Shown in pieces: positions 3,418 through 4,843 of a stretch of DNA of 16,330 bases (position 1 is the stretch's first letter; each line of letters begins with the position of its first letter). Below the pieces are notes generated by a model. It was given only the letters and a program-made list of their open reading frames with translations, made no database searches and was not told the DNA's origin. Origin of the DNA: a virus (Duplodnaviria > Heunggongvirae > Uroviricota > Caudoviricetes); IMG/VR virus record IMGVR_UViG_2684622620_000010, positions 1-16,330 of that record; one strand, given 5' to 3'. The position numbers and the translations under genes are program-made.

Positions 3418-3894
3418 TCATGCATGGTGGTCTTGCGCAGTGCGTATCACTGCTCCTCGCGTCGCTACCAGCGCCGCTATTGCTTCGTCAATTTCCTGGA
3501 TAGTTAACTCTGGCGCGAAGTGGAGATGTACAGCGTTAATCGCTTCCACCCCTTCTTTTGCCGCCAGCGTTGCCAGCAAAACGGGATCGCCCGGCGACTC
3601 CAGACGTGCCCGCCGTTCTGCGGGTAGCACGGCTTTCATCACACTGGCCAGCACCTGAGTTTTTCGGCGCGCCGCCGTTGTCTCGCCACGTAACCAGCGA
3701 AAGATTTTCTGCCGATTGTTGTTGATGGCTCTCCAGTCCACATTGCCGTCCGCGTCCTCAAATTCATGTAGTCTCAACTCATCATTGCGTCCCTGACTGA
3801 ACCAGGCCCGGCAGATTTCAATCGTGACGAGTTCCTGCCCTGCCCTTGCCGCCCAGGTCAAAATCTCTTTTTGTAATTCCTCTTGGTTTTCCAT
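3418..3894 (-). CDS. YdaT-like protein (proposed CII-like regulator of Rac-type prophages)
   Basis: 158-aa ORF downstream of the cro-like gene with the motif WRAINNNRQKIFRWLRGET...LPAERRARL, which resembles the YdaT family as I recall it. Strong RBS AGGAGA 4 nt before the ATG. Confidence 0.5.
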   Translation of the reverse strand: MENQEELQKEILTWAARAGQELVTIEICRAWFSQGRNDELRLHEFEDADGNVDWRAINNNRQKIFRWLRGETTAARRKTQVLASVMKAVLPAERRARLESPGDPVLLATLAAKEGVEAINAVHLHFAPELTIQEIDEAIAALVATRGAVIRTAQDHHA

Positions 3895-3952
3895 AGCGTC
3901 TCCTGTCGCTAAAAATTGATTACGCTTAATCAGATTTGGGGCTCACCAACAG

Positions 3953-4183
3953 TTAAGCTGCTTTCGTTTTAGGCAAGCTGTCATCTGGGTTTGGGTAAAG
4001 ATCCGGTCTAAGATCATGGGGGGTCACGCGCCATTCAAGAGCTTCAGATGTGCGCAAAACCTCTTCACCGGGAACCCTTCCTTTGAACCAGAGGCTTACC
4101 GTTTGTGGTTTTTTCCCTAATCGCCGCCCTAACTCGGATTGACTCATTACGGAAAGAATTTTGTCTTGCAGTTGTTTATCCAT
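3953..4183 (-). CDS. Cro/YdaS-like HTH regulator
   Basis: Small HTH protein (SQSELGRRLGKKPQTVSLWFKG...HDLRPDLYP) transcribed divergently from the repressor gene. Start set at ATG 4183 (AAGGAG 5 nt upstream) rather than the ORF-track start at 4210. Confidence 0.6.
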   Translation of the reverse strand: MDKQLQDKILSVMSQSELGRRLGKKPQTVSLWFKGRVPGEEVLRTSEALEWRVTPHDLRPDLYPNPDDSLPKTKAA

Positions 4184-4209
4184 ATGGACTCCTTGTGTCC
4201 GCGCCATCA

Positions 4210-4247
4210 TTACAAATCATAACTGTAATTACAAATTATATTTGCAA
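4210..4247. promoter_or_regulatory. OR-like operator pair with divergent promoters
   Basis: Two abutting 19-bp near-palindromes, TTACAAATCATAACTGTAA (4210-4228) and TTACAAATTATATTTGCAA (4229-4247), between the divergent repressor and cro-like genes. Perfect TATAAT on the minus strand at 4240-4235 overlaps the second site (PR-like); a plus-strand TACAAT at 4255-4260 is PRM-like. Confidence 0.5.
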
Positions 4248-4281
4248 TGCTCCCTACAATTAAACCTTGTATCCTTACGGT

Positions 4282-4695
4282 ATGAACACAAAAACGAAAA
4301 ACATGGCTTTTGCTAGCCGACTACAACGGATTCTAAAAGACTTAGGCTGGTCTCAATCTGAGTTAGCTCGCCATATTGGGGTTACGGCTCAATCAGTTCA
4401 GGCATGGTGTAATGGGGTAACTCCAAGAAAAGATAAATTAGACAAGCTAGCAAAAGTGACCGGATACCCTGTTCATTTTTTCTTCATGAATGAAGGGGAA
4501 TATTTGGATGAATCCACGCTACACCCGGGTAATTACAATCAAGAACTAACCCCGCAAGAACAGGCTCTACTGCAACTATTCAGAGGACTGCCTGAGAGCG
4601 AAAAAAATAAATTAATCAATGAGCTAAAAGAAAAAAGAGAGCACTTCGATCTACTGCTAAAAGAACTACTTGAAGCCAAAAACCAGACAAAATAG
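4282..4695 (+). CDS. CI-like prophage repressor (XRE-family HTH, no S24 peptidase domain)
   Basis: HTH motif LGWSQSELARHIGVTAQSVQAWCNG in the N-terminus; short helical C-terminal tail without a LexA/CI-type autocleavage domain. The ORF-track start at 4267 is a TTG; the first ATG is 4282 and an alternative ATG is at 4303. Divergent from the cro-like gene and flanked by operator-like palindromes. Confidence 0.7.
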   Translation: MNTKTKNMAFASRLQRILKDLGWSQSELARHIGVTAQSVQAWCNGVTPRKDKLDKLAKVTGYPVHFFFMNEGEYLDESTLHPGNYNQELTPQEQALLQLFRGLPESEKNKLINELKEKREHFDLLLKELLEAKNQTK

Positions 4696-4713
4696 TTCAG
4701 TTCAAATTTCCAG

Positions 4714-4729
4714 GCCAGCCGCTGCTGGC
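4714..4729 (+). terminator. Possible weak terminator hairpin after the repressor gene
   Basis: GCCAGC-CGCT-GCTGGC hairpin 19 nt after the repressor stop; no strong U-tract. Confidence 0.3.
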
Positions 4730-4814
4730 ATGCAACTTTCCCCCTAACACAAAAACACCTTTACACAGTGAATATTTTTTTGCCCCTAACTACAAATTAT
4801 TTTTTAAAAATACG

Positions 4815-4843
4815 TTGACCATTACAAATACAAATTGTAAAGT
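4815..4843 (+). promoter_or_regulatory. PL-like early promoter with overlapping operator
   Basis: TTGACC (4815-4820), 17-bp spacer, TAAAGT (4838-4843). The spacer holds the 19-bp palindrome TTACAAATACAAATTGTAA (4822-4840), which shares the TTACAAAT half-site with the OR sites. Oriented towards the orf106-to-int operon. Confidence 0.45.

Follow-up and report, generated by a model that had tools for sequence, protein, structure and literature searches.

How is a prophage switch controlled when its repressor has no domain for self-cleavage, and what becomes of such a switch once the prophage around it has been cut by insertion elements? These questions are raised by positions 3418–4843 of a 16,330-nucleotide stretch of tailed-phage DNA (Caudoviricetes; IMG/VR record IMGVR_UViG_2684622620_000010), the whole of which is called the window below. 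This region consists of three genes, for a repressor, a YdaS-family protein and a YdaT-family protein, and of two AT-rich regulatory regions. It is the on/off control (immunity) region of a lambdoid prophage that is common, and partly deleted, in Escherichia coli. A preliminary description of the sequence had assigned it to the type found in the Rac and CP-933P prophages, with a non-cleavable repressor and three operators. According to our analysis, the region is likely to be a DicA-type immunity switch of a lambdoid prophage, cut off by an IS3-family element, with binding and regulation inferred from the sequence. Every component comes from a known family with characterised members, and what is new is the operator sequence, i.e., the immunity specificity. 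The switch adds one more such specificity to the well-understood class in which a DicA/Gifsy repressor is combined with a YdaS-type Cro and a YdaT-type CII.

The open reading frame of the repressor opens at 4267, with a conserved ATG at 4282; the RefSeq annotation (PGAP) starts at 4303 and gives a protein of 130 aa. Since ATG 4282 is invariant in all relatives and Salmonella has CTA at position 4303, the likely product is the 137-aa form, and the RefSeq start is probably 21 nt too far downstream. In Pfam, the protein matched helix-turn-helix (HTH) families only (HTH_3, 47.4 bits). The best NCBIfam model was that of DicA (PRK09706), which aligned over residues 3–129 of the repressor and positions 6–132 of the 135 in the model. 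BLASTP against DicA of the Qin prophage of E. coli K-12 gave an end-to-end alignment (31% identity over 131 columns, E = 1e-15) that took in the C-terminal LPESE...helix region, whereas RacR aligned over 33 HTH residues only (39% identity). A repressor of the RacR type was ruled out on this basis, and the Rac/CP-933P assignment of the repressor has to be replaced: the protein belongs to the DicA/Gifsy class and not with RacR or PaaR2, the comparison with PaaR2 and the Gifsy proteins being made by their published descriptions. Relatives of the repressor were few (eight clusters), with identities of 87% in Salmonella, 66–68% in Klebsiella, Serratia and one IMG/VR contig, and 39% for one further protein. 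The same gene order was found in all of them, and the HTH recognition region VTAQSVQAW was near-invariant.

The AlphaFold model of the repressor (pLDDT 79.8) was all-helical, with a five-helix HTH domain (residues 3–68), a disordered linker (75–86), a helical hairpin (91–135) and no beta structure. In the PDB sequence search, the HTH part came closest to the DNA-binding domain of the 434 repressor (E = 4e-5). Peptidase_S24 was not matched in Pfam at E ≤ 0.1; NCBIfam, PHROGs and PDB sequence searches likewise gave HTH families only, and Foldseek against PDB returned HTH-family folds without any C-terminal domain of LexA or CI. The all-alpha fold and the HTH-only structural matches thus speak against a cryptic S24 peptidase, which was rejected: none of four profile libraries showed one, nor did the search of PDB sequences, the predicted structure or Foldseek. 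The earlier view of the protein as an XRE-type HTH repressor lacking an S24 peptidase is in agreement with all of these results.

Palindromes in the two regulatory regions were scored against a 19-bp consensus, TTACAAAT-N3-ATTTGTAA. The window had three matches with at most three mismatches, where 0.10 would be expected by chance, a count not reached in any of 200 shuffles of the whole window. Because the intergenic DNA is only 35% GC, a separate control with local composition was made: shuffling of the two intergenic stretches yielded a mean of 0.0006 sites (at most two mismatches), with three sites reached in 0 of 5000 shuffles. The three 19-bp palindromes noted previously are therefore real, lie exactly at the positions first given for them and stand far above chance in both controls. 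No further site with up to three mismatches was found in 27 kb of an intact relative, and the putative operators are confined to the two regulatory intergenic regions. Two weaker sites, OR3-like and OL2-like, raise the number of operator-like sites to five instead of three and complete a predicted lambda-like OR with three sites and OL with two.

All five site positions were conserved in Salmonella, Serratia and Klebsiella. OR1 and OR2 are kept in place, and half-site changes preserve the palindrome (OR1 of Serratia, for example, is TTACCAATAATATTTGTAA). The OR3-like site was conserved in position and sequence in 7 of 7 loci, and the OL2-like site recurred 32–33 bp upstream of OL1 in five other loci. 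In every relative, the same motif was found again at the distant PL promoter, 3′ of the repressor gene, and the 39%-identical relative retained a TACAA-N7-TTGTA palindrome. DicA-type relatives with a different recognition region carry TGTTAG-type operators at the same two places; the palindrome thus changes with the repressor, as expected of an operator. Site position and conservation across genera support the lambda OR/OL logic that had been suggested for this region.

The repressor stop codon (4695) is followed by a hairpin and then by the PL-like promoter, the TTGACC/TAAAGT pair being the only sigma-70-like site reported by a scan of positions 3300–6100. Its 17-bp spacer contains the third palindrome, as originally noted. 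The layout was kept in the relatives, where the −35 hexamer is TTGACC or TTGACG, the spacer holds the operator and the final 3 nt of the operator are shared with the −10; the 39%-identical relative also has a PL with an operator in the spacer. Phage BUCT708, whose repressor is a closer DicA homologue, has a PL of TTGACG-17-TAAATT with TGTTAG-type operators. The predicted layout of PL is the same in the window, at dicBp of Qin and in BUCT708. On the repressor side, the TATCCT hexamer of the candidate PRM and its 6-nt distance from the ATG were invariant in seven loci, while the six nucleotides themselves vary; the 39%-identical relative has TACAAT, 6 nt and ATG. Judging from this layout, the repressor mRNA is probably leaderless and starts at ATG 4282. 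Leaderless mRNA was shown experimentally for paaR2 and lambda cI (PMC8630535). Relative to a PRM start at 4282, OR2 would span −53 to −35.

The assignment of the other two genes as Cro (YdaS)-like and YdaT-like stood up well, both scoring above the Pfam thresholds and matching PHROGs and the Rac proteins. The Cro-like protein matched YdaS_toxin (PF15943) with 35.3 bits (cutoff 30) and phrog_35 (E = 2e-24), and it was 36% identical to YdaS of Rac; its 76-aa form is the one conserved in relatives. DicC was ruled out as its kin, no similarity being found. The YdaT-like protein matched YdaT_toxin (PF06254) with 57.4 bits (cutoff 21) and, over its full length, phrog_163 ‘CII-like transcriptional activator’ (E = 7e-42). 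It was 37% identical to Rac YdaT over 97 aa in the DNA-binding domain and weakly matched the CP-933P YdaT structures 3C4R and 8BT1 (28 and 25 bits). The F-R-W of its recognition helix (KIFRWL) is kept and aligns with FRW and HRW of the characterised proteins. Its gene follows that of the Cro analogue and precedes the replication genes, and between the Cro-like and YdaT-like genes lies the window's only match (at most one mismatch) to the published YdaT box TTGATT-N6-AATCAA, with 0.06 matches expected. In seven loci, the half-sites of this box were invariant and the N6 spacer varied. Such boxes were footprinted for YdaT of CP-933P (PMC9986795) and of Rac (PMC11879457).

In CP-933P, PaaR2, YdaS and YdaT act as CI, Cro and CII, with a leaderless repressor mRNA and a PL with operators (PMC8630535). 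Work published after 2017 shows YdaS and YdaT to be Cro and CII analogues and CP-933P YdaT not to be toxic (PMC8630535, PMC9986795). The RefSeq names of the genes in this region are ‘toxin YdaT family protein’, ‘transcriptional regulator’ and ‘helix-turn-helix domain-containing protein’. Since characterised YdaT proteins are CII-type regulators, the first of these names is misleading. Among 5426 complete E. coli genomes, 480 have a match to the region, with identities of 95–99.9%.

The prophage is integrated at a tRNA-Ser gene, beside mtfA and yeeJ. In strain RM9387 it is complete, with a length of about 46 kb, a lambda-like head, a contractile tail, a Q antiterminator and lysis genes. Homology of the window to this intact prophage spans positions 1311–15020. 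In the window, an IS3-family element cuts off the prophage within the helicase gene, and yeeJ is cut by a second copy of the element.

The intact relative provides the information on induction. DicA has no cleavage site and is inactivated by the antirepressor Rem, and repressors of the Gifsy type are likewise inactivated by small LexA-controlled antirepressors (PMC10448788). RM9387 carries a gene for a 59-aa protein (WP_001025459.1) that is preceded, at 20 nt, by a near-consensus LexA box, TACTGTATAAATGTACAGGT, and an ATGACA-17-TATAAA promoter, which overlap each other. This protein and Rem both fall into phrog_340 (E = 1.6e-20 and 4.4e-21, respectively). Given the LexA-boxed Rem-family gene, the intact phage is likely to be induced by SOS through an antirepressor. 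In the window, this gene has been lost to the IS3-family insertion. We infer that the intact phage would be SOS-inducible through its antirepressor and that the remnant has lost this input. The earlier statement that SOS induction was unlikely therefore stands as far as autocleavage is concerned, but is too strong overall in view of the gene found in the relative.

In the mechanism that we propose, the 137-aa DicA-family repressor would be made from a leaderless mRNA and would bind the 19-bp consensus sites. On OR1 and OR2, it would cover the promoter from which the Cro-like, YdaT-like and replication genes are transcribed rightward; on OL1, in the PL spacer, and on OL2, it would shut the leftward operon, which comprises a leader RNA, an exonuclease, a Gam-like protein, an excisionase-like protein and an integrase. 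From OR2 the repressor would be placed to activate its own promoter and from OR3 to repress it. The YdaS-family protein would serve as the Cro analogue on the same operator sites, and the YdaT-family protein would bind the TTGATT-N6-AATCAG box and thereby activate a PRE-like promoter that points back at the repressor gene. The repressor would not cleave itself; in the intact phage, it would be inactivated by the LexA-controlled Rem-family antirepressor. Because the putative antirepressor gene has been lost from the window, the switch can probably leave the repressed state there only if an antirepressor is provided in trans, and the remnant is probably a permanently silenced block that still confers immunity. 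Coordinates of all features are given in Table 1.

Table 1. Coordinates of the features discussed in the text (positions in the window unless a locus is named; L157 is the intact relative in strain RM9387).
Feature	Position	Strand	Sequence or remark
IS3-family copies	55–1268 and 15075–16288		identical direct repeats flanking the segment; each with an ALIL frameshift pseudoknot
Phage DnaB-like helicase gene, truncated	1308–2090		260 aa left; cut by one IS3-family copy
YdaT-family gene, CII analogue	3418–3894	−	158 aa
YdaT box	3916–3933		TTGATTACGCTTAATCAG, TTGATT-N6-AATCAG; between the Cro-like stop and the YdaT-like start
YdaS-family gene, Cro analogue	3953–4183	−	76 aa; AAGGAG 5 nt before ATG 4183
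OR1-like operator	4210–4228		TTACAAATCATAACTGTAA; 2 mismatches to consensus; position conserved
OR2-like operator	4229–4247		TTACAAATTATATTTGCAA; 1 mismatch to consensus; abuts OR1
Candidate PR −10	4240–4235	−	perfect TATAAT inside OR2
OR3-like weak site	4254–4272		CTACAATTAAACCTTGTAT; 5 mismatches (11 of 16 specified positions match); overlaps candidate PRM −10
Candidate PRM −10	4270–4275	+	TATCCT; exactly 6 nt before the repressor ATG
Repressor gene, DicA family	4282–4695	+	137 aa; XRE HTH, disordered linker, C-terminal helical hairpin
OL2-like weak site	4790–4808		CTACAAATTATTTTTTAAA; 4 mismatches
PL-like promoter	4815–4843	+	TTGACC (4815–4820)-17-TAAAGT (4838–4843)
OL1-like operator	4822–4840		TTACAAATACAAATTGTAA; 1 mismatch; inside PL spacer
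Structured RNA element	4958–5146	+	about 190 nt; 3′ of the switch and not part of it; covariance model 161 bits
RprA-like single-stranded stretch and intrinsic terminator	5265–5317	+	first intrinsic terminator after PL
yeeJ-type inverse autotransporter gene, truncated	12208–15069		cut by the other IS3-family copy
157-aa gene in relatives	L004, L016, L020, L021: 3431–3904; L018, L019: 3427–3900		directly after the repressor gene
Near-consensus LexA box and 59-aa gene	L157: 34377–34596		
ImmA/IrrE-family metalloprotease gene	L157: 36314–36802		nin-like region; no adjacent XRE partner gene

Several observations weigh against the DicA-type switch as proposed here, or against single parts of it. 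The NCBIfam score for DicA (70.3 bits) is under the curated cutoff of 101, and the repressor is to be seen as a DicA relative and not as DicA. The OR3 and OL2 sites fit the consensus weakly, and the conservation of OR3 could stem from the promoter alone. PR and PRM both fail the consensus promoter scan, and PR has two candidate positions. Pairwise BLAST of the 59-aa protein against Rem gave no alignment. LexA-box-like matches in a 37-kb stretch of RM9387 numbered 4 against 0.89 expected, and 3 of 100 shuffles also reached 4. In the window, neither a Rem-like gene nor a LexA box above chance was found; a single LexA-box match inside the O-like gene was rejected as being at chance level.

Other explanations of the region were weighed against this evidence. 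A strict Rac/CP-933P module, in which a RacR or PaaR2 homologue silences toxic YdaS and YdaT proteins as a toxin-repressor addiction module, would account for the family membership of both proteins, for the RefSeq ‘toxin’ name and for the two papers of 2017 in which the Rac proteins were called toxins. Such a module is very unlikely here: the repressor aligns end to end with DicA and only in its HTH with RacR, the hallmarks of CP-933P are missing (no paaA2-parE2 lies downstream of the repressor and the operators are unlike the published ones), the YdaS and YdaT proteins studied later are Cro and CII analogues, and the replication genes come next, as in lambda. Nor does it seem at all probable that the palindromes are something other than repressor operators, whether AT-rich repeats of the promoter region or sites bound by a host factor or the Cro-like protein alone. 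The low GC content of both intergenic regions would suit the former and the HTH nature of the Cro-like protein the latter, but shuffles of local composition never yielded three sites, the motif is repeated at the distant PL promoter of every relative, and DicA-type relatives with another recognition region have another palindrome at the same two places.

As for induction, a cryptic or novel autocleavage site that would make the repressor SOS-cleavable is scarcely credible. The 12-residue low-confidence linker (residues 75–86) is all that could be cited for it; no library gave an S24 match, the C-terminal part consists of 47 helical residues with no beta structure, DicA and PaaR2 have no cleavage motif, and PaaR2 is unresponsive to mitomycin C. 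Cleavage of the repressor by an ImmA/IrrE-family protease with no antirepressor involved, as in ImmR/ImmA and DdrO/IrrE, has somewhat more in its favour and is nevertheless unlikely. In the intact relative, a 162-aa protein of the ImmA/IrrE family (phrog_87 metallo-protease, E = 4e-30) is encoded about 8.7 kb past the gene of the Cro analogue, and DdrO was among the long Foldseek alignments of the repressor, but with an rmsd of 18. The protease gene lies away from the repressor, on the opposite strand and in a nin-like region, and no LexA box was found beside it, whereas the Rem-family gene has a near-consensus one, and Rem controls DicA, the repressor closest to this one among those characterised (PMC10448788).

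The DicA-type switch can be compared with several known systems. It resembles dicA-dicC-dicBp of Qin in its short repressor, homologous to DicA over the full length and without an S24 domain, in the Cro-like gene divergent from it, in a downstream promoter with a TTGACC −35 and an operator in the 17-bp spacer (dicBp is TTGACC-17-TAATCT) and in the phrog_340 gene of the intact relative. It differs in the operator (TGTTAG-N6-CTAACA in Qin), in a Cro analogue of the YdaS family without similarity to DicC, in the additional YdaT-type CII analogue with its box, and in the leftward operon, which comprises dicF and dicB in Qin and the structured RNA with recombination and integration genes in the window. 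CP-933P/Sp12 of E. coli O157:H7 shares the architecture of CI, Cro and CII analogues, a repressor that is not cleavable and whose mRNA is probably leaderless, operators at OR and PL and a YdaT box of the same sequence type. The window differs from it in that small ORFs matching no family are found downstream, in place of paaA2-parE2, in the operator half-site (the published CP-933P consensus is GTTTAGTAA) and in its YdaT, which matches 8BT1 at only 25 bits. PaaR2 was reported to have low similarity to DicA, and the repressor of the window is set apart from it by that description. Rac has YdaS and YdaT proteins that are 36% and 37% identical to those of the window and a box of the same type (ATGATT-N6-AATCAA; PMC11879457), but RacR (158 aa) shares only the HTH region, and the box overlaps the ydaT ATG in Rac while it lies 22 nt upstream in the window. 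GfoR and GfhR of the Gifsy phages of Salmonella, likened here by description, are of the same class, being short and without the Ala-Gly cleavage site (PMC10448788); the intact relative has a putative antirepressor arrangement like that of Gifsy, and the window lacks the antirepressor. With lambda and 434, the switch shares divergent repressor and Cro genes, three OR sites with further OL sites and, between its cro and cII analogues, a site for a CII-type activator. The differences are that the window repressor has no S24 domain, that no N gene follows PL, that the sites are 19 bp long and that OR1 and OR2 abut. The ACAA...TTGT core of the operator recalls the 434 operator; the spacing between ACAA and TTGT is 7 nt in the window and 6 in 434.

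Downstream of the PL-like promoter, no convincing ORF was found for about 850 bp (4850–5690). This part was 71.5% identical to the same position in BUCT708 and contains an RNA element (Table 1), the first product of the PL-like promoter, with a core of 100–170 nt that is about 74% shared with unrelated phages. The core was found in the lambdoid phage mEp390 directly after its S24-type cI, in the epsilon15-like phages SPN1S, Tyrion and phiV10, in the P1-like phage SJ46 upstream of a DnaB-like helicase gene, and in several Klebsiella phages. It usually bears no annotated feature, and in every case genes on the same strand lie downstream of it. An invariant 19-mer, GGTAGCCGGAATGTGCAAG, was present in more than 120 IMG/VR contigs; the part of HK022 examined, which may exclude putL, did not contain it, and a literature search for the 19-mer gave no match.

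Four helices with compensatory changes were recognised in the element. In 14 sequences, 97.3% of the cells were paired and eight pairs changed on both sides; none of 500 shuffles was as good, and slid registers gave 28–49%. A covariance model found 71 full-length copies with 103–184 bits, and among 60 distinct sequences, 96.1% of the cells pair and 110 cells are compensatory. The G-U pairs place the RNA on the PL strand. No family was matched in Rfam 15 at E ≤ 5, and single-sequence folding was no better than that of shuffles (z = 0.33 and −0.41). A terminator at a fixed distance after the element was not found. Relatives of the same immunity type can lack the element, which makes it a module separate from the switch. 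One IMG/VR contig (L051) has two copies on the minus strand, at 3975–4158 and 4781–4963, about 600 nt apart.

By analogy with put of HK022, this RNA may, as a tentative proposal, represent a new class of phage leader RNA, possibly a protein-independent processive antiterminator; one alternative reading is a processed regulatory RNA. If the antiterminator proposal were true, antitermination by RNA would be under the control of the switch, and a look-alike of a host small RNA would be released from the same transcript. As a lead, the uncatalogued RNA of the PL leader is of more interest than the switch itself. Closer to the promoter, the start of the PL transcript (4850–4900, plus strand; CATCAACAACGC...GCGGCAGTTGTTCAGAAACACGTTCTG) was conserved in all relatives, including BUCT708 with its different immunity type, and contains a small hairpin, CAGAA-ACACG-TTCTG, at 4881–4895. 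This segment may be a nut-like or pause element.

The RprA-like stretch of the leader (Table 1) showed about 83% identity to the 48 nt at the 3′ end of K-12 RprA, i.e., the single-stranded stretch and the terminator. The Rfam match to RprA at 5209–5319 (plus strand) scored 37.4 bits, below the gathering score of 70. A tRNA-like fragment with anticodon arm, T-arm and acceptor part, at approximately 5220–5270, precedes the RprA-like stretch; ARAGORN made no call on it. The module may be a prophage-borne look-alike of RprA, and a literature search found no description of a prophage RprA-like RNA. A similar module was observed in a Klebsiella relative (L020).

CP-933P-like phages were sought with the YdaT of 8BT1, and the phage examined (H77) was one of the three top-scoring matches. 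YdaT of phage vB_EcoS-813R8 (L155) was 95.6% identical to the CP-933P protein over the 90 residues compared. The phage carrying the CP-933P-like YdaT pairs it with a 199-aa protein annotated as cI, which indicates that YdaT-type CII analogues combine with several repressor types. The window is an example of such module mixing: the YdaT type stands with a DicA-type repressor here, with PaaR2 or RacR elsewhere and with the cI-annotated protein in one phage.

All close relatives carry a gene for a 157-aa protein, without known function, directly after the repressor gene. It occupies the slot where other phages have rexAB or paaA2-parE2. In the window, this gene is missing, and the repressor gene leads straight to PL.

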